Positions 6,071 to 50,115 of a stretch of 64,000 bases of DNA are shown piece by piece. Position numbers and translations under genes: made by a program. The stretch comes from Deltaproteobacteria bacterium (GTDB lineage: Bacteria; Myxococcota; Myxococcia; SLRQ01): positions 138,661 to 202,660 of the forward strand of contig JARGFU010000008.1 in assembly GCA_029210625.1 (NCBI GenBank), written 5' to 3'. The notes below the pieces were generated by a model. The model was not told where the DNA came from. It did not search any database and saw nothing but the letters and a program-made list of their open reading frames with translations. How positions within the stretch are numbered: position 1 is the stretch's first letter; each line of letters starts with the position of its first letter.

Positions 6071-6077
6071 TCTCGCC

Positions 6078-9000
6078 ATGGCGAACTCGCGCGGCATCGC
6101 CATCGTCGGACTGGGCGCACGCTTCCCGGGCGCCGAGGACGTCGAGCAGTTCTGGCGCAACATCGCCGCCGGTCACGACGCGATCGGGCCGGTCCCGGAG
6201 GAGCGGATCCCGGGCGTCTTCTTCGACGCGAGCACCAGCAGCATCGACCGGCTCCCCTGCCGCCGCGGCGGCTTCCTCGGGGCGAGCATCAACCTCGACG
6301 TCGCCGCCCACGGCCTGATGCCGGTGGCGGCCCGGGGGGCCGAGCCCGATCAGCTCCTGGCCCTCGACCTCGCGACCGCGACCTTCGCCGACGCGGGCTA
6401 CACCGAGGGCGGCTTCGATCGGAGCCGCACCGCGGTGATCCTGGGCCGGGGGGGCTACCTGGGACCGGGGCTGGTGCGGGCCGATCAGAGCGTGCGGGGC
6501 GCCGAGCAGCTCGCCGGCCTGCTGCGGCGGCTGCTCCCGGACCTGCCCCTGTCGCGGATCGAGGCCATCAAGGACGCCTACCAGGAGGCGGCGGGCCCCT
6601 ACGGTCCGGACACCGCCATCGGCCTGGTGCCGAACCTCGCCGCCTCCCGGATCGCCAACCGCCTCGATCTGCGCGGGCCAGCCTTCACCCTCGACGCCGC
6701 CTGCGCCAGCAGCCTCCTCGCGGTCGAGCAGGCGATGCTCCTCCTCGAGACCCGCCGGGCGGATCACGTCCTGGCCGGGGGCATCCACCTGGTGCAGGAC
6801 CCGACCTTCTGGAGCGTCTTCGCGCAGCTCGGCGCCCTCTCCCGCAGCGAGGCGATCCGCCCCTTCGACGCTCGCGCCGACGGCCTGCTCATCGGCGAGG
6901 GCGCGGGCTTCTTCCTCCTCGAGCGCCTCGAGGACGCCGAGGCCGCCGGTCACCGCATCTACGCGGTGATCCGCGGCGTGGGCTCGGCGAGCGACGGCCG
7001 GGGCACCTCGGTGATGCAGCCGAGGGCCGAGGGGCAGCGCCTGGCCCTGGAGCGGGCCTGGGAGGGATCGGGCCTCGAGCCCGCCCACATCGGGCTGGTC
7101 GAGGGGCACGGCACGGGCACCACCGCCGGGGACGGAGTGGAGCTCGAAACCCTGGCCCGCTTCTTCGGCCCGGCCGGGGAGGGCCCGCGCGCCAGCCTCG
7201 GCTCGGTGAAGTCGATGATCGGTCACACCATGCCGGCGGCGGGCGCCGCGGGGCTGATCAAGGCGGCCCTGGCGATCTTCCACCGCAGCCTGCCGCCCTC
7301 CCTCCACTGCGAGGAGCCCCACCCGAAGCTGGCGGCCACCCGCTTCGAGGTGCACGTCGCGGCCCGGCCCTGGACGACCGGCCCGGGAGAGGAGCGCGTC
7401 GCCGCGGTGAACGCCTTCGGCTTCGGTGGCATCGACGCCCACGTGGTGCTCTCCGAGGCCCCGGCGGGCAGCCGCCGGACCCACCGGGTGCAGGCCCTCG
7501 ACCGGGTCGAGCCCTCCTTCCCCGGCCTCCCCGACGAGGAGCGGACGGGGCTGCCCGAGGTGCTGCGCCTCGCTGGCGACTCGCCCGCCGCGCTCCTCGC
7601 GGCCCTCGAGCGCGGCGAGGGGCCGATCGGCACCGGCCCCTGCCGGCTGGCCGTCCTCCAGCCCACCCCCGAGCGCCTCGCCCGGGCGCGCCGGGTCGTC
7701 GAGCGCGGTGAGCCCTGGCGGGGCCGCGGCGGGATCTGGTTCGCCCCCGAGGGCCTGGCCCTGCAAGGCGGCAAGGTGGCCTTCCTCTTCCCGGGGGTGG
7801 ACGCCGACTTCCGCCCGCGGGTGCGCGAGCTCGCCGAGCACTTCGACCTCTCGCTGCCGCCGGAGCTCGAGGCCCTCGAGGCCGAGGAGGCGCCCCGCCG
7901 CCCCGAGGCCATCGACCGCACCGGGATGGGGATCTACCGGGTCAACCAGCTCTGCTTCGAGCTGCTCTCCCGGATCGGCCTCTTCGCCGACGCGATGGCC
8001 GGGCACAGCATCGGCGAGTGGAGCGCGATGATCCACGGCGGCCTCCTGCCGCAGGGCGCGGTGGAGGCCTTCCTGGAGGAGAGCGGCGGGCAGGCCCTCG
8101 AGGTGCCCGGCGTGCTCTTCGCCGCCGCCGCCTGCTCGGTGGACGACGCCCTCGACGCGATGACCGATCTGGAGGCCATCGGCCTCTCCCACGACAACTG
8201 CCCCCACCAGGTGATCCTCTGCGGGAAGGAGGAGAGCATCGAGACCGCCCGGGCCCGGCTGCTCTCCCGCGGCGCGGTCGTGCAGATCCTCCCCTTCCGC
8301 TCGGGCTTCCACTCCCGCCTCTTCGACGACTACCTCGACCCCCACCGCGCGCACTTCGAGCGGCTGCCCATCGAGGCGGCGCACACCACCGTCTGGTCGG
8401 CGACCACCTGCAGCCCCTTCCCGGTGGGCGCCGACGCCGTGCGCGAGCTCGCCCTGCGCCACCTCGTCGAGCCGGTGCGCTTCCGGGAGCTCATCGAGGC
8501 CCTCTACGATCACGGCCACTCGATCTTCGTGCAGGTGGGCACCGGCAGCCTGCCGGGCTTCGTCTCCGACACCCTCGGCGCGCGCCCCCACCTGACGGTC
8601 AGCGTCAGCGATCCGAAGCGCGGCGGCCTCGAGTCCCTCGCCCGCCTCGGCGCGGCCCTCTTCGTGGAGGGCATCGACCTCTGGGCCGGGATCGACCGCG
8701 CCAGGCGGCCCGGCCGGGAGGCGGCCTCCGGCGGCGGGGTGGAGACCGGGTCGAGGGGCCTGGAGCTCCCCCTGGGTGCGCCCTTCATCTCGGTGGGCGA
8801 GCCCCTGCCCTTCGGCAGCGCCGGCCCTCGCCTGCCCCCGCCCGCCCGCGGCGCGCTGCGGGATCCCCTGCGGGACGAGGTCGAGGCGACCCTCGAGGAC
8901 CTCTCCCGGATGCAGGCGGAGATCCTCGAGACCTACCAGCAGGCGCTGCGGGGGCGGAGCCGGCCCGTGCGGCAGCAGCGCACCCTCTCGGTGCGCACCG

Positions 9001-10439
9001 TGCCCGAGCTGATCGATCACAGCTTCTACCCGCAGGGCGAGGGGGCGACCCTGGCCGAGCGCGATCCCGTCGTGCCGATGACGATGTCGATCGAGCTCCT
9101 CCTGGAGCTCGCCCGCAAGGCCTTCCCCGGCCGCACCCCCGTCGCCCTCGAGGAGCTGCGGATGCACCAGTGGCTGCGGGTGCACCCGGCGGCGAAGGTG
9201 CAGCTCGTCGCCGAGCCCCGGGGAGACGATCGGGCCCACGTCGCCATCGAGGGCTTCTGCGAGGGCACCGTCCGCCTCGCCGACGCCTACCCCGCGCCGC
9301 CGGCCAGCCAGCTCCCCCCTCTCGCCGACGCCGGCCCGCCGCCCATCGACGCGGCCACCCTCTACGCCGACCGCTGGATGTTCCACGGGCCGGCCTACCA
9401 GGGCGTGCACACCATCGGCGCGCTCGGCGCCGGCGGCGTGGAGGGCAAGCTCAAGGTCACCGAGGGGCCCGGCGCCCTCCTCGACTCCCTCGGTCAGCTC
9501 TTCGGCTTCTGGCTGATGGCGACCCGCACCGAGGACAAGCTGGCCATGCCGATCGGCCTGGAGTCCCTCGAGCGCTTCGGCCCGCACCCGCAGGCTGGCG
9601 AGCTCCTCGACGCGCGGGTGCGGATCACTCACTGCGACGATCGCCGCCTGGTGGGGGACATGGAGGTCCTGCGCGGCGAGCAGGTCTGGTGCCGGATCCG
9701 CGGCTGGGCCGACCACCGCTTCCCCTCGGATCCGGACACCTGGAAGGTGCTGCAGCACCCCGAGCGCCACCGCCTCTCGGCGCGCCGGGAGCCCTACTTC
9801 CTCTTCGACGCCGCGCGCTGCCGGCCGCCCTCCCGGGACTGGCTGATCCGGCGGATGCTCTCGGAGCACGAGCGCACCACCCTCCTGGCCTCGGCGCCCC
9901 AGGCGCAGCGCGCCTACCTCCACGCGCGCATCGCCGGGAAGGACGCCGTGCGGAGCCTGCTGGAGCAGGGCGCCGAGCTCGCCGATCCTGGCGAGGCCAT
10001 CTTCCCCTCCACGCTCCCGCTCCTGGGCGATCACGAGGAGGGCCTGCGCCTGGCCGGCCCCCACGCTGGCGAGCTGAAGGTGGACGCCGCCACCGCCGGA
10101 GATCTCGCGGTGGCCCTCGCCTCCCGCAAGGGCGAGGTGGCCATCGCGCTCTACCCCCTGGGCAGCCTGCCGCCCGGCGCCCGCCAGGCGAGCTTCGCCA
10201 GCGACGAGCTGGATGCCGCGCGCGCAGCGGGCGCCGGTGACGACCTCGACGCCCGGCTCCACGTCTGCGCTGCCCGGGCCATCGCCTCCCGCCTGGCCGC
10301 GCGCGGCGGGGAGGCCGGGCCCCGCGAGGCGGACGCCGTGAGCGAGGGCCGGCCGGGCGGCCTGCGCGTCGGAGAGCTCTGGGTCGAGCTGCGGGTGGAC
10401 CTGGGCCACCTGGTGGCCTGGGCCCTGCGACCGGACTAG
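6078..10439 (+). CDS. Second PKS subunit: KS-AT-DH(hot-dog) plus a C-terminal ~230 aa tail with weak phosphopantetheinyl-transferase-like motifs.
   Basis: ATG at 6078 lies 8 nt after the upstream stop. The KS has DAACASS, EGHGTGT and GHTMPAAG. The AT has GHSIGEW. The hot-dog DH region has HQWLRVHP and LYADRWMFHGPAYQG. The tail contains LSEHERTTL and RIAGKDAVRSLLEQG, which resemble AcpS/Sfp motifs. Confidence 0.8.
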   Translation: MANSRGIAIVGLGARFPGAEDVEQFWRNIAAGHDAIGPVPEERIPGVFFDASTSSIDRLPCRRGGFLGASINLDVAAHGLMPVAARGAEPDQLLALDLATATFADAGYTEGGFDRSRTAVILGRGGYLGPGLVRADQSVRGAEQLAGLLRRLLPDLPLSRIEAIKDAYQEAAGPYGPDTAIGLVPNLAASRIANRLDLRGPAFTLDAACASSLLAVEQAMLLLETRRADHVLAGGIHLVQDPTFWSVFAQLGALSRSEAIRPFDARADGLLIGEGAGFFLLERLEDAEAAGHRIYAVIRGVGSASDGRGTSVMQPRAEGQRLALERAWEGSGLEPAHIGLVEGHGTGTTAGDGVELETLARFFGPAGEGPRASLGSVKSMIGHTMPAAGAAGLIKAALAIFHRSLPPSLHCEEPHPKLAATRFEVHVAARPWTTGPGEERVAAVNAFGFGGIDAHVVLSEAPAGSRRTHRVQALDRVEPSFPGLPDEERTGLPEVLRLAGDSPAALLAALERGEGPIGTGPCRLAVLQPTPERLARARRVVERGEPWRGRGGIWFAPEGLALQGGKVAFLFPGVDADFRPRVRELAEHFDLSLPPELEALEAEEAPRRPEAIDRTGMGIYRVNQLCFELLSRIGLFADAMAGHSIGEWSAMIHGGLLPQGAVEAFLEESGGQALEVPGVLFAAAACSVDDALDAMTDLEAIGLSHDNCPHQVILCGKEESIETARARLLSRGAVVQILPFRSGFHSRLFDDYLDPHRAHFERLPIEAAHTTVWSATTCSPFPVGADAVRELALRHLVEPVRFRELIEALYDHGHSIFVQVGTGSLPGFVSDTLGARPHLTVSVSDPKRGGLESLARLGAALFVEGIDLWAGIDRARRPGREAASGGGVETGSRGLELPLGAPFISVGEPLPFGSAGPRLPPPARGALRDPLRDEVEATLEDLSRMQAEILETYQQALRGRSRPVRQQRTLSVRTVPELIDHSFYPQGEGATLAERDPVVPMTMSIELLLELARKAFPGRTPVALEELRMHQWLRVHPAAKVQLVAEPRGDDRAHVAIEGFCEGTVRLADAYPAPPASQLPPLADAGPPPIDAATLYADRWMFHGPAYQGVHTIGALGAGGVEGKLKVTEGPGALLDSLGQLFGFWLMATRTEDKLAMPIGLESLERFGPHPQAGELLDARVRITHCDDRRLVGDMEVLRGEQVWCRIRGWADHRFPSDPDTWKVLQHPERHRLSARREPYFLFDAARCRPPSRDWLIRRMLSEHERTTLLASAPQAQRAYLHARIAGKDAVRSLLEQGAELADPGEAIFPSTLPLLGDHEEGLRLAGPHAGELKVDAATAGDLAVALASRKGEVAIALYPLGSLPPGARQASFASDELDAARAAGAGDDLDARLHVCAARAIASRLAARGGEAGPREADAVSEGRPGGLRVGELWVELRVDLGHLVAWALRPD

Positions 10440-39073: not shown

Positions 39074-40927
39074 ATGCGAAAGAAGCTTGCCATCGGCACC
39101 ACCCTGGTCGCCACCCTGGCTCTGGTCGGGTGCCCCAACCAGGGCAACTACGTTCCCCGGAGCTCCGGCTCCCTGGGTCTGACCTCCGACGACGCGACGC
39201 TCTTCGTCGCCGACACGGATCACAACCGGGTCACCATCATCGCCACCGCGACGATGGAGGTCCTCGGCCACATCCCCGTGGGCTCGGCCCCCGAGCGGAT
39301 CCTGGTCGGCCCCGACGACACCGTCTGGGTCACCAACCGCGCCGGCCGCACCGTGATGCGCATCCCCGCCGGCTCGATGGAGGTCGAGGCCACCGGCTCG
39401 GTCGGCGGTGAGCCCGTCGGCATGACCCTGACCGAGGACGGCAACCTCCTGGTCGCCAACTCGACCTCGGGCACCGTCTCCGTCCTCGACGCCCAGACCC
39501 TCGGCAACGTCGGCGAGATCCGCGTCGGTGGCACCCCCTGGGCCGTCACCGCGCTGGGCAAGACCGCCTACGTGACCGACCTCCTCTCCTCGCGAGTGGC
39601 CATCATCAACGTCGAGAGCGGTGAGCTCGAGGACGAGATGGAGATCGAGCACGAGCAGTCCGAGAACTGCTTCATGGGCAACGGCCCGCAGCGCGTCCCG
39701 AACCAGCCCGCCGACGTGGTCCTCTCCCCCGACGGCGACCGGGCCTACATCGCCCACGTGCTGGCGCGGACCGGCACCGACGGCTTCACCAACGACAACC
39801 TGAACCTGGCCGTGGCGCCGGCGGTCTCCACCGCCTCCACCTCTCGCAACATGATCCTCTCGGCCTCGACCCCGGCGTCCGACCCTGATCGCGACTACCC
39901 GGGCCAGATGCTCGCCTCCACCGACGACGAGTTCTGCGCCGCGGCGAACCAGGACTCCATGGACGCCCCGAGCTCCCTGGTCGTCGACTCCACCGGCGAG
40001 TGGATCTACGTGGCCGACCACAACTCCAACGCCCTGGCCATCGTCTCGGCCCGCAACAAGCAGTGGCCGACCTTCCTCGATCCCGAGCGCGGCATCGTCG
40101 ACCTGGTCCGGGTCGGCGCCCGCCCCACCGGCCTGGCCGTCCGCGGTGACCTCTCGGCGGCCTACGTCCACAACGCCTTCGACTACAGCATCTCCGTCGT
40201 CGAGCGGCAGGGCGAGCGCCTGGTGACCACCAACGAGATCGTCTTCAACGAGCCCCAGCTCACCCCGGCCCAGGAGAACGGCCGCCGCCTCTTCTACTCC
40301 GCGGTCGACCCCCGCATGACCGAGCCGGATCTGGGCGGCGTCTCCTGCTCCTCGTGCCACCCCGACGGCCGGACCGACAGCCTGAACTGGTCCCTGGCCG
40401 GCGGCCGCATCAACCCCATCGACCCCGACAACCGGATCGGCATCCAGACCCCGGCCCTCTGGGATCTGGCCGACACCGCCCCCTTCGCCTGGGACGGCTC
40501 GAGCCCCGATCTCGATAGCCTGGCCCACGTGATGGTCTCCTGGATGGGCGGCCGCGGCCTGGCCCAGACCGAGGCCGAGGACATCCTGGCCTACATGGAC
40601 ACCATCAGCCCGCCGGACAACCCCGCCGCCGAGATCCTGCCCCAGGCGCAGCTCGACGAGGGCCGGATCCTCTTCCAGTCCAACTGCGCCGGCTGCCACG
40701 CTGGCACCTCCTTCACCGACGGTCAGCAGCACCCGACCGCCTCCGGCGGCGGCCTGGTGAACACGCCCACCCTCAAGGGCGTCTTCGCCACCGGCCCCTA
40801 CCTCCACGACGGCTCGGCCCGCACCCTGCAGGAGGCCTTCTCTCGCGGCCTGCAGACCGGCCACAACGCCGACGGCCTCAACGCGGTGCAGAAGGAGGCC
40901 CTCGAGGTCTACCTGAAGACCCTCTAG
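39074..40927 (+). CDS. Lipoprotein fusing a YVTN-type beta-propeller to a di-heme cytochrome c peroxidase (CCP/MauG-family) domain.
   Basis: Strong SD AAGGAGAG upstream. MRKKLAIGTTLVATLALVGC has a lipobox. Repeated beta-propeller blades follow. The two heme sites are SCSSCHPDGRTD and NCAGCHAG. TPTLKGVFATGPYLHDGSARTL matches the conserved CCP second-heme region. Confidence 0.75.
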   Translation: MRKKLAIGTTLVATLALVGCPNQGNYVPRSSGSLGLTSDDATLFVADTDHNRVTIIATATMEVLGHIPVGSAPERILVGPDDTVWVTNRAGRTVMRIPAGSMEVEATGSVGGEPVGMTLTEDGNLLVANSTSGTVSVLDAQTLGNVGEIRVGGTPWAVTALGKTAYVTDLLSSRVAIINVESGELEDEMEIEHEQSENCFMGNGPQRVPNQPADVVLSPDGDRAYIAHVLARTGTDGFTNDNLNLAVAPAVSTASTSRNMILSASTPASDPDRDYPGQMLASTDDEFCAAANQDSMDAPSSLVVDSTGEWIYVADHNSNALAIVSARNKQWPTFLDPERGIVDLVRVGARPTGLAVRGDLSAAYVHNAFDYSISVVERQGERLVTTNEIVFNEPQLTPAQENGRRLFYSAVDPRMTEPDLGGVSCSSCHPDGRTDSLNWSLAGGRINPIDPDNRIGIQTPALWDLADTAPFAWDGSSPDLDSLAHVMVSWMGGRGLAQTEAEDILAYMDTISPPDNPAAEILPQAQLDEGRILFQSNCAGCHAGTSFTDGQQHPTASGGGLVNTPTLKGVFATGPYLHDGSARTLQEAFSRGLQTGHNADGLNAVQKEALEVYLKTL

Positions 40928-40940
40928 CGGCCCTCACGCC

Positions 40941-41012
40941 GCGCCCCTCTCCCGCTCGCGGGAGGGGGGGAAGCAGCCCCTCTCCGGAAGCGGAGGGGGG
41001 CTTCGCTTTTTT
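40941..41012 (+). terminator. Rho-independent terminator: tandem GC-rich hairpins followed by a T-run.
   Basis: The first hairpin is gcgcccctctcccgc-tcgc-gggaggggggg. The second is cccctctccggaagcggagggggg with G-U wobbles, followed by cttcgcTTTTTTg. It lies 14 nt after the CCP-like stop. Confidence 0.6.
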
Positions 41013-41182
41013 GCAGTTGGTCAGACCAAAAAAGACCGCCAAAACAGCGGCTTGCGTGATTGATCTTGCTGCTGGGGGTGGGTAGTTTGCGGCCCCCTTT
41101 CCTTCGCCGGAACCAGGCCTGGCGACCGGCGCTCGATCGCCGTGGTCCCTTTGCCGGCCTCCCGAGACCGAGGCGCCCTTTC

Positions 41183-42934
41183 ATGACCGCGCTCCCCGAC
41201 ACCGCCGAGACCCGGCTCCCCCTCGCTCACCTCGAGGGTCCGCCGATGCCCGCCCTCGAGGTGGAGACTCTCCCGGCCGCCCTGGCCCGGGCCGCCGGCT
41301 CCCACCCCGATCGCACCTACCTCGGCTTCCTCGACGCCAAGAACGAGCCCACCGAGGTCAGCTTCGGCGCCCTGCAGGCGGGCTCCGAGGCCTTCGCCCG
41401 GGCCCTGCTGGCCTGGGAGCTCGAGCCCGGCGAGCGGGTGGTGCTCCTCCTCCCCACCGGCCCGGACTTCCTCGAGGCCTTCTTCGGCACCCTCCTGGCC
41501 GGAGGCGTGCCCGTCCCCTGGCCCCTGCCCCTGACCATGGGCCGGATCGACGCCTACGTGGAGGGCACCGTCGCCCGGATCGTCGCCGACGCCGGGGCGA
41601 GCCACTGCATCACCACCGATCGGGCCGAGGAGTCCCTCGGCCGGGTGATGGAGGGCCTCGGCAAGCCCGGGCGCGTGAAGACCATGGAGGCCCTGCGGGC
41701 GGACGAGGCTCCGGCGGCGGACTTCCCCGCGCTCTCTCCCGACGGCCTCGCGCTCCTGCAGTACACCTCCGGCCGCACCCACCTGCCGGGCGGCGTCCGC
41801 CTCACTCACCGTCAGCTCCTCTCGAACGTCGCCGGCGTCGGGCAGGCCCTGGCCCTGGGCGAGGACGACGTGGGCATGAGCTGGATCCCCCTGGTCCACG
41901 ACATGGGCCTGGTCGGCGTGCTCTGCTCCAGCCTCTACTTCCGCTTCCCCTCCTACGTGATGGCCCCCGAGGCCTTCCTGATGCGGCCCTACCGCTGGCT
42001 GCAGGCCATCTCGACCTTCAAGGCCACCCTCTCCGCCGCGCCCAACTTCGCCTACCGCCTCTGCGTGCGGAGGGTGAGCGACCGCTACCTCGAGGGGGTC
42101 GACCTCTCCAGCTGGCGCCTGGCCCTGAACGGCGCCGAGCAGGTGCAGCCGGACTCCTGTGACGCCTTCGCCGAGCGCTTCGCCGGGGTGGGCTTCCAGA
42201 AGTCGGCCTTCTATCCCCTCTACGGCCTGGCCGAGAACGCCCTGGCCGCGACCTGCCCGCTCTTGGATCGCACCTACGAGACCTACCCCTTCGACGCGAC
42301 CATCGAGAAGGGCGAGCTGGTCGCCGCCTCTCCCTCGCCGGAAGCAGGCGCGCCCGTCGCCTCGGTGGGCCGGCCTCTGCCGGGCCAGGAGATCGCCATC
42401 GTGGACGCCGCCGGCGAGCTCCTCCCCGAGCGGCACCAGGGCAAGATCGTCGTGCGCGGCGTCTGCCTGATGGAGGGCATCCACGGCCGCCCCGAGCGCA
42501 CCTCCGAGCTGAAGGCCGGGGGCTGGCTGCAGACCGGTGACCTCGGCTTCATCGAGGATGGCCGCCTCTTCGTGACCGGCCGCCTCAAGGAGATGGTCAT
42601 CAAGATGGGGCGCAACTACTACCCGGACGACGTGGAGCAGGTGCTCCTCGACGCCGGCGTGCTGGAGGGCCGGCGCGTCACCGCCCTGGCGACGGGCAAC
42701 GCCGAGAGCGGCACCGAGGACCTCCTGCTCGTCCTCGAGGGGCCCGCCTTCGACGAGGCGGATCCGAAGGCCCGGAAGGCCTTCGAGAACACCCTGAGCG
42801 CCACCCTCCTCGATCAGCTCGGCATCCGCGCCGACCGCATCCTCCACCTGGCCCCGGGGCACCTCGGCGAGGGCGACGCCAGCGCCCGCCGGGCCGCGAT
42901 CCGCACGCTGCTGCGCGAGGAGAGCGCGGCATGA
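41183..42934 (+). CDS. Fatty acyl-AMP ligase (FAAL) / AMP-dependent synthetase.
   Basis: LQYTSGRTHLPGGVRLTHRQLLSN is the FAAL-type A3-A4 region. GWLQTGDLGFIEDGRLFVTGRLKEMVIKMGRNYYPDDVE spans the A8-A10 region. The start is MTALPD at 41183; the upstream part of the listed ORF is unsupported. Confidence 0.85.
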   Translation: MTALPDTAETRLPLAHLEGPPMPALEVETLPAALARAAGSHPDRTYLGFLDAKNEPTEVSFGALQAGSEAFARALLAWELEPGERVVLLLPTGPDFLEAFFGTLLAGGVPVPWPLPLTMGRIDAYVEGTVARIVADAGASHCITTDRAEESLGRVMEGLGKPGRVKTMEALRADEAPAADFPALSPDGLALLQYTSGRTHLPGGVRLTHRQLLSNVAGVGQALALGEDDVGMSWIPLVHDMGLVGVLCSSLYFRFPSYVMAPEAFLMRPYRWLQAISTFKATLSAAPNFAYRLCVRRVSDRYLEGVDLSSWRLALNGAEQVQPDSCDAFAERFAGVGFQKSAFYPLYGLAENALAATCPLLDRTYETYPFDATIEKGELVAASPSPEAGAPVASVGRPLPGQEIAIVDAAGELLPERHQGKIVVRGVCLMEGIHGRPERTSELKAGGWLQTGDLGFIEDGRLFVTGRLKEMVIKMGRNYYPDDVEQVLLDAGVLEGRRVTALATGNAESGTEDLLLVLEGPAFDEADPKARKAFENTLSATLLDQLGIRADRILHLAPGHLGEGDASARRAAIRTLLREESAA

Positions 42935-43944
42935 GCTCGGTGGTGGTCGGCGGCACGGGCTTCATCGGCCTGAACCTCTGCGAGGCGCTCCTCGCCCGCG
43001 GAGAGGACGTCGTCTCCACCCGCCGCAAGTCGAGCAACACCATCTTCGCCCGGCGGCTGAAGCTGCCGCTGGTGCCCGCCGATCTCGAGACCGGCGAGGG
43101 CCTCGCCGAGGCCCTCGAGGGGCGCGAGACCCTCTACTTCGCCGCCGGCCACTATCCCCGCTACTCGGTCGACACCGAGGCCCAGGTCGAGATGGCCGTG
43201 CGCCACCTGCGCGGCGTCCTCGAGGCGGCCCGCGAGGCCGGCCTGCGGCGGGTGGTCTACGTGGGCACCGTCTCCACCGTCGGCAAGGCGCCGGCCGGGG
43301 CGCTGGCCACCGAGGAGGACGGACTGACCGCTCCGGAGGAGGGGGACACCTACGCCGCGATCAAGCTGGCCCTCTCCGAGGCCGCCCTCTCGGCCAACGG
43401 AGAGGGGCTCGAGGTCGTCGAGCTGATGCCCACCGGCGTGCTCGGCCCCTACGACCACAAGGTCGGCACCGGCTTCTTCCTCCTCGGCCAGCTCTCGGAG
43501 AAGCTCGACTTCTGGATCGAGGGCAAGGTGAACTTCATCGACGCTCGCGATCTGGCCGAGGCCGCCATCGCGGCGGCCGAGCGCGGCAAGCCCGGCGAGC
43601 GCTACATCCTCGGCGGCCACAACATCACGGTCGAGGACTTCGTGAAGCAGATCGCCGATCGCTTCGAGGTCCCCGTCCCGGCGCGACGCCTCGATCTGGC
43701 CGCCGCGCGCGCGCTGGCCCACGCCGAGGAGGCGCGGGTCCTCGCCGAGGGCAAGGGCCGCCCGCTGCTGACCCGCGAGATGGCGGATGCCATCGGCGAC
43801 GGTCAGTTCGTCGACATCTCCCGGGCGAGGGCCTCCCTGGGCCTCTCGCCCCGCCCCCTGAACGAGACCCTGGATGCCGCCGTCGGGTGGTATCGCAAGA
43901 ACGGATTCCTTCCGCGGGAGACCCCCGCCAGGAGAACAGCATGA
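42931..43944 (+). CDS. Extended-SDR NAD(P)-dependent reductase (epimerase/dehydratase fold), candidate thioester reductase.
   Basis: VVGGTGFIGLNL is a TGxxGxxG Rossmann motif. A YxxxK region is present (YAAIK). Start and stop overlap the neighbours as ATGA on both sides. Confidence 0.8.
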   Translation: MSSVVVGGTGFIGLNLCEALLARGEDVVSTRRKSSNTIFARRLKLPLVPADLETGEGLAEALEGRETLYFAAGHYPRYSVDTEAQVEMAVRHLRGVLEAAREAGLRRVVYVGTVSTVGKAPAGALATEEDGLTAPEEGDTYAAIKLALSEAALSANGEGLEVVELMPTGVLGPYDHKVGTGFFLLGQLSEKLDFWIEGKVNFIDARDLAEAAIAAAERGKPGERYILGGHNITVEDFVKQIADRFEVPVPARRLDLAAARALAHAEEARVLAEGKGRPLLTREMADAIGDGQFVDISRARASLGLSPRPLNETLDAAVGWYRKNGFLPRETPARRTA

Positions 43945-44195
43945 GCGACCGCAAGGAAGAACTTCAGACCGCCGTCTTCGAGATCGTGGCCGAGCTGGTC
44001 AGCGCCGAGCCGGGCGAGATCAAGGGCGAGGATCGCCTCCGCGAGGACCTGGGCCTCGACTCCCTGCAGAGCATGGAGCTGCTCTCCCGCGTGAGCGAGA
44101 CCTTCGAGATCGATCCCGACCTCGAGGAGGTCATGGATCTGGCCACCGTCGAGGAGGTGATCACCTCCCTCGCCGCCCACCTGGAAGGCGCGTGA
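43941..44195 (+). CDS. Acyl carrier protein.
   Basis: The 84 aa product has EDLGLDSLQSMELL, a DSL phosphopantetheine-attachment motif. Confidence 0.85.
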   Translation: MSDRKEELQTAVFEIVAELVSAEPGEIKGEDRLREDLGLDSLQSMELLSRVSETFEIDPDLEEVMDLATVEEVITSLAAHLEGA

Positions 44196-45499
44196 TGAAG
44201 GTCACCTTCGTCTATCCCGGCTTCGAGCGGCACGCCGAGGCGCACCCCGAGCTCCTCGAGTTCGTCCCGGCGGACGAGTACCTCGGCCCGCCCTCCCTGG
44301 GTATCGCCTCGGTGGCGGCCGCCACCCCCGAGCAGTACGAGGTCGCCTTCATCGACGACCGCCTGACGCCCGTCGACGCCGGCCTCGAGACCGACGTCGT
44401 CGCCCTCTCCTTCTTCACCCCGGCCGCGACCCGGGCCCTGGAGATCGCCGACCAGATGCGGGCGGCGGGCAAGACCGTCGTCGCCGGCGGCATCTTCCCC
44501 ACCCAGATGCCCGACGTCGTCGCCGAGCACGTCGACGCCGTGGTCGTGGGCGAGGGTGAGCCGGTCTGGGCCGACCTCCTGGCCGACGCCGAGAAGGGCT
44601 CGCTGAAGAAGAAGTACGTCGCGCCGCCGCACGACCTCTCCACCTCGCCGGTCCCGCGGGTCGACCTCTACTTCAACGCCGAGACCGAGGGGCACCACCC
44701 GGACGACTACCCCTTCCAGCTCTCCCGGGGCTGCCCCCTCACCTGCGACGCCTGCGTGCTGCCCATCCACATGGGCAAGAAGATGCGCTTCTACTCGCAG
44801 GAGCAGCTCGAGGCGACGATGCGGGCCTACGCCGACGCCGGCAAGATGGTCTCCCTGACCGAGGACACCTCGATCTTCGGCCTCCAGGGCGCCCGGAAGC
44901 ACCTGCGGGAGTTCCTCGACACCACCCTGCGCCTCCAGCAGGAGGGTGTGAAGGTGAAGATCTCCTACCTCGGCATCTCGATGCCGATGATCCTCAACCT
45001 CGATCCGACGCTGCTCCAGCAGATGCGGTCGACGGGGATGGATCGCTTCTACCTGGTGGGCGGCTTCGACCCCATCACCCGCAACGCCTTCGGCCCGAAC
45101 GACCCCAAGGCGCTGGAGAAGGCCTACAAGGTCATCGCCCGCTGCAAGGAGTTCGGGATCGATCCCTACGTCTCCTTCCTCGTGGGCAACGAGGGTGACG
45201 ACGAGGGCACCTTCGATCGGATGCTGGAGTTCGCCAGCAAGTCCGGGATCGAGCTGGCCGAGTTCGTGGTCTCGACCCCCTACCCGGGCACCCCGATCTG
45301 GCACCGCTACCAGGAGGAGGGTCGGATCTTCGACCACACCTGGAAGCACTACAACGACGCGAACGTGGTCTTCGAGCCGCACCAGATGAGCCCGGAGCGC
45401 CTGCAGGAGGGCTACCTCTACCTGTGGCGCGAGTTCTACCGGGGTCGTCAGGCCGAGTTCGACGAGCGTTCGCACCAACGCAGCACCGTTCAGTTCTAG
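44195..45499 (+). CDS. Cobalamin-dependent (class B) radical SAM enzyme.
   Basis: The N-terminal B12-binding Rossmann region is DVVALSFFTPAATRALEIADQMRAAGKTVVAGGIFPT. The radical SAM motif is SRGCPLTCDAC (CxxxCxxC). The product is 434 aa. The ATG overlaps the ACP stop by 1 nt. Confidence 0.8.
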   Translation: MKVTFVYPGFERHAEAHPELLEFVPADEYLGPPSLGIASVAAATPEQYEVAFIDDRLTPVDAGLETDVVALSFFTPAATRALEIADQMRAAGKTVVAGGIFPTQMPDVVAEHVDAVVVGEGEPVWADLLADAEKGSLKKKYVAPPHDLSTSPVPRVDLYFNAETEGHHPDDYPFQLSRGCPLTCDACVLPIHMGKKMRFYSQEQLEATMRAYADAGKMVSLTEDTSIFGLQGARKHLREFLDTTLRLQQEGVKVKISYLGISMPMILNLDPTLLQQMRSTGMDRFYLVGGFDPITRNAFGPNDPKALEKAYKVIARCKEFGIDPYVSFLVGNEGDDEGTFDRMLEFASKSGIELAEFVVSTPYPGTPIWHRYQEEGRIFDHTWKHYNDANVVFEPHQMSPERLQEGYLYLWREFYRGRQAEFDERSHQRSTVQF

Positions 45500-45508
45500 A
45501 GGTACACC

Positions 45509-47140
45509 ATGGGCACCGAGACCGTTCACGCTTTCGAGAGGATTCACGAGGATCACGCAGCGCTCGCCGAGGCGCTGAATCTCGTGGGGGCCACCGCCGA
45601 GGAAGCCGAGAGCGTCTCGATGCTCGTGGACCCGGTGCGGCGCTGGGCGAACGACACGCTCGACGCCGCCGCCATCGAGGAGGCGCACGCGATCTCCCCG
45701 CAGATCCGGGCCTCGGCCGCCGAGATGGGCCTCTACGGCCTGACCATCCCCGAGAAGTTCGGCGGCGCCGGCTTCTCGCTGGTGGGCTCCGGCCGGATCA
45801 TCGAGGAGATCGCCCGGGTGGACCGCTCGGTGGCGGTCTCCATCGGCCTGCACAACGGCCTCGGCCTGCGCGGGATGATCGCCTACGCCTCGGACGACCT
45901 GCAGGCGAAGTTCCTCGAGCAGATGGCCACCGGCGAGCTGATCGGGGCCTTCGCCGCCACCGAGCCGGGCGCCGGCTCGCACATCGCCGGCGTGAAGACC
46001 ACCGGGGTGATGGACGAGGAAGACCCGACCCTGCTCACCGTCAACGGTGAGAAGGTCTACGTCACCAACGGCGGCTTCGCCGACGTCTTCACCGTGCTGG
46101 CCCGCACCCCGGGCCTCGGCGGCGCCCGCCGCGGCTACTCCCTCCTCTTCCTCGAGAAGACGATGGAGGGCCTCGAGGTCGGCCGCGAGGAGGACAAGCT
46201 CGGCATCCGCGCCTCCTCCACCACCGGCCTGACCTTCGAGGACCTGCGGGTCTCCACCGACCGCGTCATCGGCGAGCCCGGCAAGGGCCTGGACCTGATG
46301 AACTGCATCCTGGCCTGGGGCCGGACCCTGATGAGCGCCGGCGCCCTCGGCGGCGCCAAGACCGCCTACGAGATGGCGATGAGCCACGCGCTCACCCGCA
46401 GGCAGTTCGGCAAGCCCATCGCCGAGTTCGGCCAGGTCCGGGAGAAGCTCGCCCGGATGCGGGCGCGCATCTACGCCATGGAGAGCCTGGTGCGCCTCAC
46501 CGGGCTGCTCCAGGCCCGCCACGGCTCGGACGTCATCTGGACCTCCACCGCCACCAAGATCTTCTGCTCGGACGGCGCCGTCGAGATCGCCGACGAGGCC
46601 ATCCAGATCCACGGCGGCGCCGGCTTCATCGAGGAGGTGGGCGTCGCCCGCATCCTGCGCGACTGCCGGATCACGCAGATCTTCGAGGGCGCCAACGAGG
46701 TCCTGCGCTTCCACCTCGCCGCCGGCGCGCTGCCCTTCGCCGGCACCGAGGCCGGCGCCATCGCCGGGCTCTTGCCCGAGGCGTTGAAGGCCCAGGGCGA
46801 GCGCTGGGACGCCCTCCAGGCCCGCACCCGCACGCTGCTCTCCTCCATGGCCAAGAAGTACGGCCCGCGGATCATGGAGCACCAGCTGCGGCTGGCCGGC
46901 GTCGCCGACGCCTTCACGGCCCTCGTCGCCCTCGAGGCGAGCCTGCTGCGCGCGGGCCACGCCCTGAAGACGGCCTCCGGGGAGGAGGCCCGCGAGCTGA
47001 CCGAGCTCGTGACCTACCTCACGGCCCTGCTCGCCCGCGAGGCCGAGGCAGGTCTGGCCTCGGCCGAGGACGAGGCCTTCGAGACGGCGGCCAACGCGCT
47101 CTCCTCGACCGAGATCGAGTCCGCGCGTGCCCGACTTTGA
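45509..47140 (+). CDS. Acyl-CoA/acyl-ACP dehydrogenase family flavoprotein.
   Basis: ACAD middle and C-terminal segments include GSGRIIEEIARVDRSVAVSIGLHNG, AFAATEPGAGS, YVTNGGFADVF and IHGGAGFIEE. The product is 543 aa with an extended C-terminus. Confidence 0.85.
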   Translation: MGTETVHAFERIHEDHAALAEALNLVGATAEEAESVSMLVDPVRRWANDTLDAAAIEEAHAISPQIRASAAEMGLYGLTIPEKFGGAGFSLVGSGRIIEEIARVDRSVAVSIGLHNGLGLRGMIAYASDDLQAKFLEQMATGELIGAFAATEPGAGSHIAGVKTTGVMDEEDPTLLTVNGEKVYVTNGGFADVFTVLARTPGLGGARRGYSLLFLEKTMEGLEVGREEDKLGIRASSTTGLTFEDLRVSTDRVIGEPGKGLDLMNCILAWGRTLMSAGALGGAKTAYEMAMSHALTRRQFGKPIAEFGQVREKLARMRARIYAMESLVRLTGLLQARHGSDVIWTSTATKIFCSDGAVEIADEAIQIHGGAGFIEEVGVARILRDCRITQIFEGANEVLRFHLAAGALPFAGTEAGAIAGLLPEALKAQGERWDALQARTRTLLSSMAKKYGPRIMEHQLRLAGVADAFTALVALEASLLRAGHALKTASGEEARELTELVTYLTALLAREAEAGLASAEDEAFETAANALSSTEIESARARL

Positions 47141-48344
47141 TGGCAGACCGGCGCCCCCCTCTCACGATCTGATCGTCGTCGGGGGCGGCATCGTGGGCCT
47201 GGCCTGCGCTCACGCGGCGCTGGTGGCCCACCCCGACTGGCGGGTCCTGGTCCTGGAGAAGGAGGCCGAGCTCGCCGCGCACCAGACCGGCCGCAACTCG
47301 GGGGTGATCCACTCGGGGATCTACTACACCCCGGGCTCCGCCAAGGCCCGGCTCTGCCGGGCGGGCCGCGAGCAGCTGATCGACTTCTGCACCGCCGAGG
47401 GCGTGCCCTTCGAGCTCTGCGGGAAGGTGATCGTCGCGGCGTGCCCCGAGGAGCTGCCGGCCCTCGACCTGCTCCTGGCCCGCGGAGAGGAGAACGGCGT
47501 CGACTGCGAGCTGGTCGAGGCGGCCGGCCTCCACGCCCTCGAGCCCCACGCCGGGGGGCTGGCCGCCCTCCACGTGCGGGACGCGGGCATCGTCGACTTC
47601 GGTCAGGTGGCCCGGAAGCTCGCCGAGAAGATCGAGGCCGCCGGTGGCGAGATCCGCCGGAGCTGCGCGGTCACCTGCCTGATCGCGGCGAGCCCCGAGG
47701 CGGCGGCGGTCTACCTCGATGACGGCAGCCTCCTGCGCGCAAGCCGGGCCATCGCCTGCGCCGGCCTCCACTCGGACCGGCTGGCCGAGAAGAGCGGCCT
47801 CTCGAGCCCGGTGCGGATCGTCCCCTTCCGGGGCGAGTACCACGAGCTCAAGCCCACCGCGGCCGCCTGGGTGAAGGGCCTGATCTACCCCGTGCCCGAT
47901 CCCCGCTACCCCTTCCTGGGGGTGCACCTCACCCGCCACATCGACGGCCGGGTCTCCTGCGGGCCCAACGCGGTGCTGGCCTGGGCCCGGGAGGGCTACC
48001 GGCGGGGCGCCTTCTCCCTGCGGGACGCCACCGAGAGCCTCCGCAGCCGGGGGCTGCGCCGGCTCATGCGCCAGAACCTGCGCACGGGCCTCGCCGAGCT
48101 GCGCCGCTCCTACTCGCGGCGGCGCTTCGCCGCGGACGCCGCGAGGCTCCTGCCGGGGCTGAAGGCGTCGGATCTGCGGCCCGGCCGCCCGGGGATCCGG
48201 GCGCAGGCCCTCCTCCCCGACGGGCGCCTGGCCGACGACTTCGTGATCCTGAGCGACGGCCCCGTCACGCACGTCCTCAACGCCCCCTCCCCGGCCGCGA
48301 CGGCTTCCCTCGCCATCGGAGCGCACATCGCCGGTATGCTGTAG
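47127..48344 (+). CDS. FAD-dependent oxidoreductase, L-2-hydroxyglutarate oxidase (LhgO)-like.
   Basis: IVVGGGIVGLACA is a GxGxxG motif. NSGVIHSGIYY is the LhgO/L2HGDH signature. GTG start overlaps the ACAD gene by 14 nt. Confidence 0.75.
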   Translation: MPDFDGRPAPPSHDLIVVGGGIVGLACAHAALVAHPDWRVLVLEKEAELAAHQTGRNSGVIHSGIYYTPGSAKARLCRAGREQLIDFCTAEGVPFELCGKVIVAACPEELPALDLLLARGEENGVDCELVEAAGLHALEPHAGGLAALHVRDAGIVDFGQVARKLAEKIEAAGGEIRRSCAVTCLIAASPEAAAVYLDDGSLLRASRAIACAGLHSDRLAEKSGLSSPVRIVPFRGEYHELKPTAAAWVKGLIYPVPDPRYPFLGVHLTRHIDGRVSCGPNAVLAWAREGYRRGAFSLRDATESLRSRGLRRLMRQNLRTGLAELRRSYSRRRFAADAARLLPGLKASDLRPGRPGIRAQALLPDGRLADDFVILSDGPVTHVLNAPSPAATASLAIGAHIAGML

Positions 48345-48365
48345 CTCTCTCGAAAGGAGAGCACG

Positions 48366-49205
48366 ATGGGGATCCTGGGCAGGAGCGACGGAGTCCGGCC
48401 GAAGCGCGAGCACGTGCTGCGCAAGATCATGCCTCACCTGATGCCGACGCGGACCGAGGCGATCGTCTACTTCGATCAGGAGATCCCGATCACGGGCACG
48501 CGCGCCTACCTGGCACAGCACGAGGAGGTGAACCTCTTCCAGGTCATCCTGGCGGCGATGGCCCGGGCCCTGGCCGAGCGGCCGGGGCTCAACCGCTTCG
48601 TCGCCGGCCGGAAGATCTACCAGCGCGAGGAGGTCGCGATCTCCTTCGCGGTGAAGAAGCAGTTCTCGGACAAGGCCAAGCTCACGACCGTGAAGGTGAT
48701 CTTCGAGGCCGAGGACACCCTCGCGAAGGTCGGCGAGCGGGTGAAGGAGGCCGTCGGCGTGGGCAAGGCGGAGAAGGACACCTCCTCCGAGAAGGAGATG
48801 AACCTCGCCAGCTACCTGCCTCGCTCGCTCATCCGCTTCTTCGTCTGGTTCCTGCGGGTGGCCGACTACTGGGGGTTGATCCCGGGGGCGATGCTCAAGA
48901 ACGACCCCCTCTACGCCAGCCTCTTCGTGGCGAACCTCGGCAGCGTCGGCCTCGACGCCGCCTACCACCACCTCTTCGAGTACGGCACGGTCCCCCTCTT
49001 CGCCGTCGTCGGGAAGACGAAGAAGGTCCCCTACGTGAAGGAGGACGACACCGTCGGCGTGCGCGAGGTGGTGCCGATCCGCTACACCTTCGACGAGCGG
49101 ATCAACGACGGCTTCTACTGCGTGAAGAGCCTGGAGAACATGGCTCGATATGTCGAGCAGCCCGAGTTGCTCGAGGCACCCGGAGCTGCTGGGTCGATCG
49201 ACTGA
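48366..49205 (+). CDS. 2-oxoacid-dehydrogenase E2 catalytic-domain-like (CAT-fold) acyltransferase.
   Basis: Strong SD AAGGAGAG upstream. YTFDERINDGFY aligns to the E2 DHRxxDG catalytic motif, but with Glu in place of the His. The fold assignment is by eye. Confidence 0.55.
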   Translation: MGILGRSDGVRPKREHVLRKIMPHLMPTRTEAIVYFDQEIPITGTRAYLAQHEEVNLFQVILAAMARALAERPGLNRFVAGRKIYQREEVAISFAVKKQFSDKAKLTTVKVIFEAEDTLAKVGERVKEAVGVGKAEKDTSSEKEMNLASYLPRSLIRFFVWFLRVADYWGLIPGAMLKNDPLYASLFVANLGSVGLDAAYHHLFEYGTVPLFAVVGKTKKVPYVKEDDTVGVREVVPIRYTFDERINDGFYCVKSLENMARYVEQPELLEAPGAAGSID

Positions 49206-49208
49206 GGG

Positions 49209-49598
49209 TCAGTGAGTCCAGCGGGCGCCGGCGCCCGACTCGGCCTCGTCGGCCTCGAGGCCGTGGGACATCACGAAGTGGAAGATCGGCTCGGCGTCGG
49301 CGGTGGGCGGGACGAGCTCGAAGAGGAACTCGTCGCTGCGGTCCCCGGGCCTGGCCTGCACGTAGGCGACCTCCGAGGGGTGCAGCACCAGCTCGGCCTG
49401 GATGCGCTTCCCCCGGATCACCTGCACCAGGTAGGTGTCGTCGTCCTCGATGCCGAAGTGCCAGTGCAGGTCGTCGTCGTCGAAGACGATGGCCGAGGCC
49501 GAGCCGGCGCGCAGCACGCAGTTGAGGTGCAGCTGCAGCCAGTTCCAGAAGGTCTGGAAGGGATGGGTCTCGAGCGAGGTGCCGACGCCTTCGGACAT
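49209..49598 (-). CDS. Hypothetical protein.
   Basis: The 129 aa product is non-repetitive and rich in acidic and aromatic residues (FWNWLQLHL, DDDDLHWHFGIEDDD). No domain recognised. Confidence 0.45.
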   Translation of the reverse strand: MSEGVGTSLETHPFQTFWNWLQLHLNCVLRAGSASAIVFDDDDLHWHFGIEDDDTYLVQVIRGKRIQAELVLHPSEVAYVQARPGDRSDEFLFELVPPTADAEPIFHFVMSHGLEADEAESGAGARWTH

Positions 49599-49788
49599 GT
49601 GCCCTTCCTAGCGCCCCGACCCCTCCTTTGGCAATCGACCCGAGCTCCCCTGGAACCACCGGGGTCCAGGCGAAAAACTGGACGGCCGCGGATTCTACGT
49701 TACGGTCGACTCGCAGGTCGCCGGTGGGTCCGGCGAGCCGCCTCTCCTACCTGAAGCTGGAAGTCGCTGAACCCTCGAGGAGGTTCCC

Positions 49789-50115
49789 ATGTTCTTGGCC
49801 GTGAGCAGCAAGAAGGATCGCCGTCGTCTCCCCCGGATGCGCCTCGGGTGCGTGATGGAGTACCGGATCGAGGGCACCGAGGAGGTGGTCGAGGGCTACG
49901 CCAAGACCGTCAGCGGTGGCGGCCTCTCCTTCGAGAGCGACCGCGCCCTGGAGCCGGGCACCCTCGTCGAGATCAAGGTCGACCCGCCCCTGCGCCTGAC
50001 CAACGCCCTCACCGGCGTGATCGAGGTGACGCGCTGCGAGCCGATCGACACCGGCCGCGGCATGCCCTACGCGGTCGCCGGCGACTTCAAGAAGATCGGC
50101 TCGGCGGCCGGTTGA
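49789..50115 (+). CDS. PilZ-domain (c-di-GMP-binding) protein.
   Basis: KDRRRLPR matches the RxxxR motif. KTVSGGGLSF matches the D/NxSxxG motif. The product is 108 aa. Confidence 0.7.
   Translation: MFLAVSSKKDRRRLPRMRLGCVMEYRIEGTEEVVEGYAKTVSGGGLSFESDRALEPGTLVEIKVDPPLRLTNALTGVIEVTRCEPIDTGRGMPYAVAGDFKKIGSAAG

Follow-up and report, generated by a model that had tools for sequence, protein, structure and literature searches.

Seven co-directional genes fill positions 41183 to 49205 on the plus strand of a 64-kb stretch of myxococcotal DNA (contig JARGFU010000008.1; the whole stretch, with 72% G+C, is hereafter the window; Table 1). They encode a fatty acyl-AMP ligase (FAAL), an extended short-chain dehydrogenase/reductase (SDR), a dedicated acyl carrier protein (ACP), a radical S-adenosylmethionine (SAM) enzyme, a member of the acyl-CoA dehydrogenase family (ACAD), the oxidase LhgO and a stand-alone protein with the E2 catalytic fold. 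Profile searches against Pfam and NCBIfam, with curated cut-offs as given per model, confirm all seven domain calls of an earlier annotation made from the sequence alone (the first-pass annotation), and a check of open reading frames (ORFs) and junctions bears out the arrangement that it had described. The FAAL/SDR junction is an ATGA overlap (4 nt), as is the SDR/ACP junction; the ACP and radical SAM genes overlap by 1 nt (TGATG), a 9-nt gap precedes ACAD, ACAD and LhgO overlap by 14 nt, and a 21-nt gap containing AAGGAG separates LhgO from the E2-like gene. The terminator in front and the convergent gene behind are likewise present: the hairpin has a 12-bp GC-rich stem, and no plus-strand terminator-like sites were found inside the operon. 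The genes flanking the operon on both sides are unrelated. G+C content at third codon positions (GC3) is 0.91 to 0.97 across the seven operon genes and the convergent gene, indicating that all eight are real and native.

Table 1. The operon and its boundaries, with positions counted in the window.
Feature	Positions	Strand	Size	Description
Upstream cytochrome c/NHL gene	39074-40927			Ended by the hairpin at 40975-41012
Intrinsic-terminator-like hairpin and T run	40975-41012	+		Marks the 5' boundary of the operon
FAAL	41183-42934	+	583 aa	Cassette gene 1; Pfam AMP-binding
Extended SDR	42931-43944	+	337 aa	Cassette gene 2; HpnA/OleD/3-beta-HSD type
Dedicated ACP	43941-44195	+	84 aa	Cassette gene 3; Pfam PP-binding
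Radical SAM enzyme	44195-45499	+	434 aa	Cassette gene 4; N-terminal B12-binding-type Rossmann domain
ACAD	45509-47140	+	543 aa	Cassette gene 5; VLCAD/ACAD9-like acyl-thioester dehydrogenase
LhgO, L-2-hydroxyglutarate oxidase	47127-48344	+	405 aa	GTG start; operon member here, outside the conserved cassette
Stand-alone E2-catalytic-fold protein	48366-49205	+	279 aa	Operon member here, outside the conserved cassette
Convergent gene	49209-49598	-	129 aa	Marks the 3' boundary

Genomic neighborhood analysis reveals that the conserved unit is the five-gene cassette FAAL-SDR-ACP-radical SAM-ACAD, with ACP, radical SAM and ACAD as its invariant core; this follows from neighbor counts and from a reverse test with E2-like loci. 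The radical SAM family comprises at least 614 clusters at 90% identity with E < 1e-100, and a scan with one genome per species found that 167 species-level genomes encode a relative. The window member is 100% identical to a protein from a MAG labeled ‘Deltaproteobacteria bacterium’. The loci studied are the best 80 of these 167; all 80, and all named protein matches, are metagenome-assembled genomes (MAGs), nearly all from Myxococcota, with two labeled Spirochaetota and one Acidobacteriota. Neighbors were counted by tblastn with the window proteins in the 49 loci that offer at least 5 kb upstream and 3.5 kb downstream. ACAD stands next to the radical SAM gene in 47 of the 49, ACP in 45, SDR in 38 and FAAL in 35. 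A FabF-like ketosynthase (KS) is found near it in 15, an oxoamine synthase (AOS) in 10 and a family III CoA-transferase in 8, and neither LhgO (0/49) nor the E2-like gene (0/49) was detected. Unbiased ORF clustering of the loci agrees with these counts. The order of the cassette genes is constant, except for a swap of ACAD and radical SAM in one clade. An order of the first five genes that is repeated across dozens of species-level genomes goes far beyond what chance would give. The first-pass annotation had proposed such a survey for the FAAL/SDR/ACP/B12-radical SAM/ACAD set; its five genes do recur, mainly in Myxococcota, and the two that it had added to them do not. The closest relatives (L084 and L085, at 83-86% identity; L numbers denote related loci) lie on contigs that end too early to show the DNA after ACAD.

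LhgO and the E2-like gene are therefore lineage-specific additions to the transcription unit, as both are absent by tblastn from 83 of 83 related loci of the radical SAM gene, and the seven-gene unit of the first-pass annotation does not hold. LhgO scores 505 bits on the NCBIfam equivalog NF008726 (cut-off 299) over the full length of the model. This narrows an assignment originally worded as an FAD oxidase of the 2-hydroxy-acid type, whose family stands: LhgO is most likely an ordinary L-2-hydroxyglutarate oxidase, and the E2-like protein most likely a member of a widespread stand-alone family. The latter was first called an E2-fold acyltransferase, and the fold is confirmed by PF00198 (51 bits, cut-off 23) and by Foldseek, which aligns its AlphaFold model (predicted local distance difference test, pLDDT, 84) with E2 catalytic cores (E 2e-14, TM-scores reaching 0.77). 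The catalytic part of the call is not: the protein reads FDERINDG where E2 enzymes have DHRxxDG, placing a Glu at the position of the catalytic His, and an alignment shows the Glu of FDERIxDG to be invariant in 17 family members. The protein has no second Pfam domain and lacks the lipoyl and subunit-binding domains. Members of this stand-alone family are either non-catalytic or use a relocated His. They also have in common the motif YHHLYEYG, invariant as well, and an additional helical segment inserted at about residues 140-180. The 1336 homologs, of about 280 aa, occur in Myxococcota, Gemmatimonas and others as stand-alone genes in unrelated contexts; none of 82 further E2-like loci lies beside LhgO, an ACP or a radical SAM gene. 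A conserved role as the releasing acyltransferase of the cassette, or as a ceramide-synthase analog, was rejected because no other locus links the protein to the cassette and its catalytic His is missing. With two of seven genes being passengers, operon membership judged from tight junctions alone can mislead.

The recurring partners of the cassette are Claisen-type condensing enzymes that accept acyl-thioesters. One variant reads (methyltransferase)-KS-FAAL-SDR-ACP-radical SAM-ACAD and another CoA-transferase III-(FAAL)-ACP-radical SAM-ACAD-AOS, in which the SDR is usually missing, while a clade at 52-56% identity has FAAL-SDR-ACP-ACAD-radical SAM. A type I polyketide synthase (PKS) lies beside the cassette in L007. 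In the Acidobacteriota MAG L072 (9938-18936), the order is radical SAM (52% identity)-PKS(KS-AT-DH-ER-KR-ACP)-AOS; the PKS is a fully reducing type I module, and the locus has no separate FAAL, ACP or ACAD. On a 9.3-Mb chromosome (GCA_942493285.1; L089, 7150-13550), SDR-ACP-ACAD-radical SAM, without FAAL, is followed by a 759-aa thiamine diphosphate (ThDP) enzyme that passes the indolepyruvate/phenylpyruvate decarboxylase equivalog (565 bits vs 554.5). L056 carries an in-frame FAAL-SDR fusion (6769-9723) with no carrier domain between the two parts, followed by ACP, radical SAM, ACAD and AOS. A second such candidate, a 940-aa FAAL-SDR ORF in a long-read MAG (L010, 6934-9753), was rejected as a frameshift artifact; the C-terminal part of its FAAL reads as low-complexity Pro/Arg/Gly. 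The AOS gene directly follows ACAD in six loci (L028, L031, L035, L041, L047, L056). Its product belongs to the Spt/BioF/Kbl family, with Spt-CFB as the best model at 385-403 bits, under the cut-off and barely ahead of Kbl and BioF (in L028, 385 vs 380 bits for the competing models, both under cut-off). Two loci have a second, small radical SAM gene beside the cassette (L013, 12825-13976; L172, 6263-7279); its product has no B12 domain and is HxsC-like at best, and a hemerythrin gene precedes it in L172.

Among known systems, the proteobacterial sphingolipid operon aasR-epi(cerR)-acpR-spt, which the first-pass annotation had overlooked, comes closest to the cassette, not ElbD. Its genes are aasR (acyl-ACP synthetase), acpR, epi (= CerR) and spt, with instances in Caulobacter (CC_1165-CC_1162) and Escherichia coli BL21 (ECD_02851-02854) (PMC9386255). 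The annotated order in E. coli BL21(DE3) is fatty acyl-AMP ligase, NAD-dependent epimerase/dehydratase, ACP and serine palmitoyltransferase. The window has in common with E. coli BL21 the FAAL-SDR-ACP order and the overlaps at two junctions, 4 nt between FAAL and SDR and 1 nt behind the ACP gene. In about 10 related loci, the cassette is followed by an Spt-like AOS (32% identity to E. coli Spt, E 3e-67, in L056). The window differs in the radical SAM and ACAD genes inserted after ACP, which have no counterpart in the proteobacterial operon, and in its lack of spt; in many cassette relatives, the place of the AOS is taken by a FabF-like KS or PKS. E. coli YghO has no tblastn match in the window or in any locus, so that no N-acyltransferase of the YghO/bCerS type was found there. 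Cultured myxobacteria possess adjacent aasR/acpR homologs in an operon, 36-39% identical to Caulobacter AasR; these pairs (MXAN_6636/6637, STAUR_1258/1257, sce7053/7052) lie ‘in different genomic contexts’ (PMC9386255).

The first three proteins of the cassette share this resemblance to different degrees. The top NCBIfam matches of the window FAAL are nearly all FAAL-type models, the best being NF006624 at 388 bits, under its cut-off of 600; this model names the E. coli protein, and E. coli AasR scores 870 bits on it. The two proteins are 34% identical over 511 aa (E 1e-82), and the best PDB match, 3pbk, is E. coli AasR. The ACP, whose phosphopantetheine attachment site is DSL, is 33% identical to E. 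coli AcpR over 58 aa. The SDR contains GGTGFIG and YAAIK motifs and matches only Epimerase, 3Beta_HSD and NAD_binding_10 in Pfam; its nearest NCBIfam models are HpnA (193 bits), SdmB and OleD. HpnA and OleD are also the top models for E. coli epi, to which the window SDR is only 25% identical (E 7e-9). The first-pass annotation had taken TGFIG as a sign of a thioester reductase. However, neither Pfam nor NCBIfam gives a match to NAD_binding_4, TIGR01746 or any other thioester-reductase model, and the motif is thus merely the generic glycine motif of extended SDRs.

The ACAD comprises three ACAD domains and a C-terminal extension of the VLCAD/ACAD9 type, and its best PDB matches are ACAD9 and VLCAD. 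Together with the catalytic Glu, which is retained in IFEGANE, this extension fits long-chain substrates. Its best NCBIfam match is a Bacillus-type FadE (303 bits), followed by the acryloyl-CoA reductase AcrC (246 bits). PigA, RedW and MbtN are ACAD-family enzymes that act on carrier-bound thioesters, and on their models the window protein scores 200, 182 and 68 bits, respectively. The last comparison leads to the mycobactin enzymes MbtM/MbtL/MbtN, where a dedicated ACP receives its acyl chain from a FAAL, and the chain is desaturated on the carrier by an enzyme of the ACAD family. A FAAL, an ACP and an ACAD-family dehydrogenase are encoded together in the window as well, a match at the level of architecture only, as the scores on the MbtM (233 bits) and MbtN models fall far under the equivalog cut-offs. 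To our knowledge, mycobactin biosynthesis involves neither a radical SAM enzyme nor an SDR. The mycobactin acyl chain is released by the GNAT MbtK, and the window cassette has no GNAT. A candidate cluster for anammox ladderanes encodes amxACP, FabF, a desaturase and a B12 radical SAM enzyme (PMC13459092). It resembles the cassette in its dedicated ACP, in chain desaturation, in the FabF-like KS (optional in the cassette) and in a radical SAM enzyme with a B12 domain, for which the ACP-bound chain is the proposed substrate. The two differ as follows: the window radical SAM enzyme scores 40.9 bits on TIGR04072 (cut-off 360), the putative desaturase of the window is an ACAD and not phytoene-desaturase-like, FAAL and SDR are present, and the host belongs to Myxococcota.

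The radical SAM enzyme combines the Rossmann domain PF02310 (42.6 bits, cut-off 32.1) with the radical SAM domain PF04055 (40.1 bits, cut-off 29.5), and its cluster motif CPLTCDAC (CX3CX2C) is invariant in the family. Its structure model shows a Rossmann domain and a barrel (pLDDT 90.7). The best NCBIfam model is the uncharacterized TIGR04013 (77 bits); scores on HpnJ (44), HpnR (29), the ladderane model TIGR04072, BchE (44) and MgmA (40.8) compare with cut-offs of 360-650, and the AprD4 model gives 27.7 bits, far under its cut-off. By structure, the best neighbor is AprD4 (TM 0.74-0.75, E 3e-19), with MgmA, TsrM, CysS and TokK behind it (TM 0.60-0.67). These four enzymes bind cobalamin. By sequence, the nearest solved structure is 9ccb (E 2.5e-9), which is MgmA, a B12-dependent glutamine C-alpha methylase (PMC11796369). 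AprD4, a radical diol dehydratase, binds no cobalamin despite its Rossmann-like domain (PMC12931638). The window enzyme resembles AprD4 in size and domain layout, and in both AprD4 and MgmA the radical SAM enzyme acts beside a carbonyl or hydroxyl carbon. Identity to either is 16-19%, and their substrates are an aminoglycoside and a protein, respectively, not an acyl-ACP. C-methylation, the first of the chemistries that the first-pass annotation had listed, is thus not supported as the default: with MgmA nearest by sequence but the cobalamin-free dehydratase AprD4 nearest by fold, methylation may be a reasonable guess and is not a safe one.

The reading that we favor, held with about even confidence, is that genes 1 to 5 form a conserved cassette, mainly of Myxococcota, that tailors a long-chain fatty acid tethered to its own ACP and feeds it to a condensing enzyme. 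This upholds the ACP-centered fatty-acyl tailoring of the first-pass annotation, with FAAL loading, an ACAD and a radical SAM enzyme of class B architecture. Family membership, key motifs, gene order, conservation and neighbor identities were observed directly; the mechanistic steps are all deduced from family membership and synteny. A fatty acid would be adenylated by the AasR-like FAAL and loaded on the dedicated ACP, and the VLCAD/ACAD9-like flavoprotein would convert the acyl-ACP to a 2-enoyl-ACP, as MbtN, PigA and RedW act on carrier-bound thioesters. The radical SAM enzyme would then modify the chain near its activated end. For this reaction we lean slightly toward cobalamin-dependent C-methylation, with a cobalamin-free radical elimination or rearrangement of the AprD4 type nearly as probable. 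The modified acyl-ACP would be taken by a Claisen-type condensing enzyme, which in other lineages is encoded beside the cassette (an Spt-like AOS, a FabF-like KS or a type I PKS) but has no gene in the window, and the resulting 3-oxo group could be reduced by the HpnA/OleD/CerR-like SDR. The layout corresponds to an aasR-epi/cerR-acpR-spt operon with radical SAM and ACAD genes inserted after acpR.

Several observations weigh against this scheme. The operon in the window contains no condensing enzyme, and tblastn finds no match to Spt/AOS anywhere in the 64 kb. Nine AOS-bearing loci retain the cassette, and 8 of these lack the SDR, which weakens the role of the SDR as 3-oxo reductase in the AOS branch; the SDR is also distant from E. 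coli epi, as noted above, and resembles cinnamoyl-CoA reductases (E 1e-10). On account of the last point, thioester reduction by the SDR is kept as an option, and as a minority option only given the missing NAD_binding_4 and TIGR01746 matches. The margin by which the window FAAL prefers the AasR-type model over other FAAL models is small (next model 336 bits), and no curated radical SAM family in NCBIfam was matched, all scores lying far under cut-off. The 14-nt ACAD/LhgO overlap and the strong Shine-Dalgarno sequence of the E2-like gene indicate that both additional genes are probably co-translated with the cassette, and they could have been functionally recruited in this lineage. The downstream 2-oxo/2-hydroxy acid theme and the likeness to AprD4 lend support to a different chemistry, considered below. 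Finally, the cassette model as a whole is built on inference from sequence and synteny.

The alternatives differ in how much of the operon they explain and in the fate they assign to the acyl chain. A sphingolipid-specific reading takes the cassette as the Myxococcota version of aasR-cerR-acpR, making a modified long-chain base with Spt and ceramide synthase encoded elsewhere in the genome; condensation of the 2-enoyl-ACP by Spt would lead to a delta-4 base, and a branch would come from the radical SAM enzyme. The gene order and overlaps of the E. coli BL21 operon, the FAAL, ACP and AOS similarities, the six loci with AOS directly after ACAD and the aasR/acpR pairs of cultured myxobacteria (PMC9386255) all speak for it. 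We nevertheless consider it unlikely: the window lacks both Spt and a YghO-type N-acyltransferase, the AOS scores do not separate Spt, Kbl and BioF, the KS loci (15) outnumber the AOS loci (10), and the SDR is distant from epi/CerR and mostly missing where AOS is present. A rather less likely possibility is a 2-hydroxy/2-oxo acid pathway that proceeds by radical dehydration. Here an AprD4-like radical SAM enzyme would remove a hydroxyl to give a ketone or enoyl product, the ACAD would be an enoyl-thioester reductase, LhgO and the E2-like protein would be functionally linked in this lineage, and the SDR would stand in for AprD3, the NAD(P)H reductase that works with AprD4. The structural ranking of AprD4 (TM 0.74-0.75, against at most 0.67 for the methylases), the absence of cobalamin from AprD4-type enzymes despite a Rossmann-like domain (PMC12931638), AcrC as second-best ACAD match, a family III CoA-transferase in 8-12 loci, the 2-oxoacid decarboxylase after the cassette in L089, and the presence of LhgO and an E2 fold in the window all speak for it. 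However, judging from the FAAL and the VLCAD-like ACAD, the substrates would be long-chain fatty acids, the carrier is an ACP and not CoA, the KS, AOS and PKS neighbors indicate biosynthesis, and the 2-oxo-acid theme is based on one locus per feature; moreover, the nearest solved relative by sequence is the C-methylase MgmA, and no electron-transfer flavoprotein (ETF) genes are adjacent.

The remaining two readings fare worse. It seems improbable that all seven genes constitute one lipid-tailoring pathway with the logic of ElbD or a carboxylic acid reductase, in which the FAAL would load the ACP, the chain would be methylated, desaturated or 2-oxidized, the SDR would reduce it as a thioester reductase and the E2-fold protein would transfer it. 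The tight junctions (including the ACAD/LhgO overlap and the Shine-Dalgarno sequence before the E2-like gene), the lack of an internal terminator and the weak similarity of the SDR to cinnamoyl-CoA reductases are what such a pathway would predict. Against them stand the absence of LhgO and the E2-like gene from every related locus, the 82 E2-like loci without cassette and LhgO, the LhgO score above its equivalog cut-off, the invariant Glu at the catalytic His position of the E2-like family and the missing NAD_binding_4/thioester-reductase match of the SDR. ElbD of Myxococcus xanthus is a single fused protein with FAR1-like, ACS, ACP and AGPAT-like domains, and the elb operon also encodes the NAD-dependent epimerase/dehydratase proteins ElbA and ElbE (PMC9131029). 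Fatty-acid activation, ACP, reductase and acyltransferase do occur together in one myxobacterial locus in both cases, yet the analogy drawn in the first-pass annotation breaks down at the types of reductase and acyltransferase: the window SDR is HpnA/OleD-like and has no FAR1-like (NAD_binding_4) domain, and the operon has no AGPAT/PlsC-like domain, its sole acyltransferase-like protein being the PF00198 E2 fold, which lacks the catalytic His and is not conserved with the cassette. Finally, a module for catabolism or salvage is very improbable. It would break down an unusual lipid in a manner resembling beta-oxidation, with activation by the FAAL, dehydrogenation by the ACAD and oxidation of the 3-hydroxyacyl intermediate by the SDR. 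A Bacillus-type FadE is indeed the best NCBIfam match of the ACAD, and a dehydrogenase role for the SDR is possible in principle; the dedicated ACP, the use of a FAAL rather than an acyl-CoA synthetase, the lack of a hydratase or thiolase in any locus and the association with biosynthetic condensing enzymes all argue otherwise.

Full-text literature searches found no description of the cassette, in line with the first-pass view that this gene combination is not a described pathway. A 2026 review of work up to 2025 covers the lipid-modifying radical SAM enzymes Tes, Mss, Gms, GrsA/B, Gmm, Cds, HpnH/J/P/R, Jaw5 and the ladderane candidate (PMC13459092), and none of those it covers acts in a FAAL/ACP/ACAD setting. 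Among them, Jaw5 sets the precedent that a radical SAM enzyme can act on an enoyl thioester while a chain is being assembled (PMC13459092). The parts of the cassette belong to known families, and in its front half it follows a known operon. What appears to be undescribed is that genes for a B12-domain radical SAM enzyme and an ACAD are inserted and that the cassette is coupled in modular fashion to KS, AOS or PKS; the lipid product appears to be undescribed as well. Returning to the favored five-gene reading, the conservation of the cassette in at least 47 sampled species-level genomes, often beside condensing enzymes, and its layout, which is like that of the sphingolipid starter operon, suggest that Myxococcota, already known for unusual lipids, make a further lipid or lipid-derived metabolite. 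Through the cassette, either a radical modification of acyl-ACPs that is new or a variant of the route to sphingoid bases could come to light. A bolder form of the proposal, which we put forward tentatively and regard as possible though somewhat doubtful, is that the radical SAM enzyme performs an undescribed reaction on an acyl- or enoyl-ACP (C-methylation, cyclization or radical elimination near the thioester), and that the cassette defines a lipid class of its own, sphingoid-like or beta-hydroxy lipids with branches or other modifications, in well over 100 mostly uncultured species of Myxococcota. If true, the lipid-modifying radical SAM enzymes, which are few, would gain a new member.

The regions around the operon were also inspected. 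An Rfam search of 40500-49800 matched no family at E <= 1, including in the 170-nt leader before FAAL, which argues that the 5' untranslated region carries no cobalamin riboswitch. No sigma-70-like promoter was found, a search that is uninformative for this phylum. The 256-nt spacer before FAAL contains back-to-back terminator-like hairpins, one on the minus strand (41035-41051) and the plus-strand hairpin of Table 1. Near the start of the window, two large PKS-type genes (98-10436, +) resemble a polyunsaturated fatty acid (PUFA) synthase or an hglE-like system; the first has NMO-type enoyl reductase, KS, acyltransferase (AT) and ketoreductase (KR) domains, and the second a KS, an AT-like region and a dehydratase (DH). 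They were rejected as part of the system because they lie 30 kb upstream of the cassette, behind housekeeping genes (aldolase, peptidase S49, histidine kinase). At the other end of the operon, the convergent gene encodes an acidic protein without a Pfam match (GC3 0.97), and its stop codon lies 4 nt from that of the E2-like gene.

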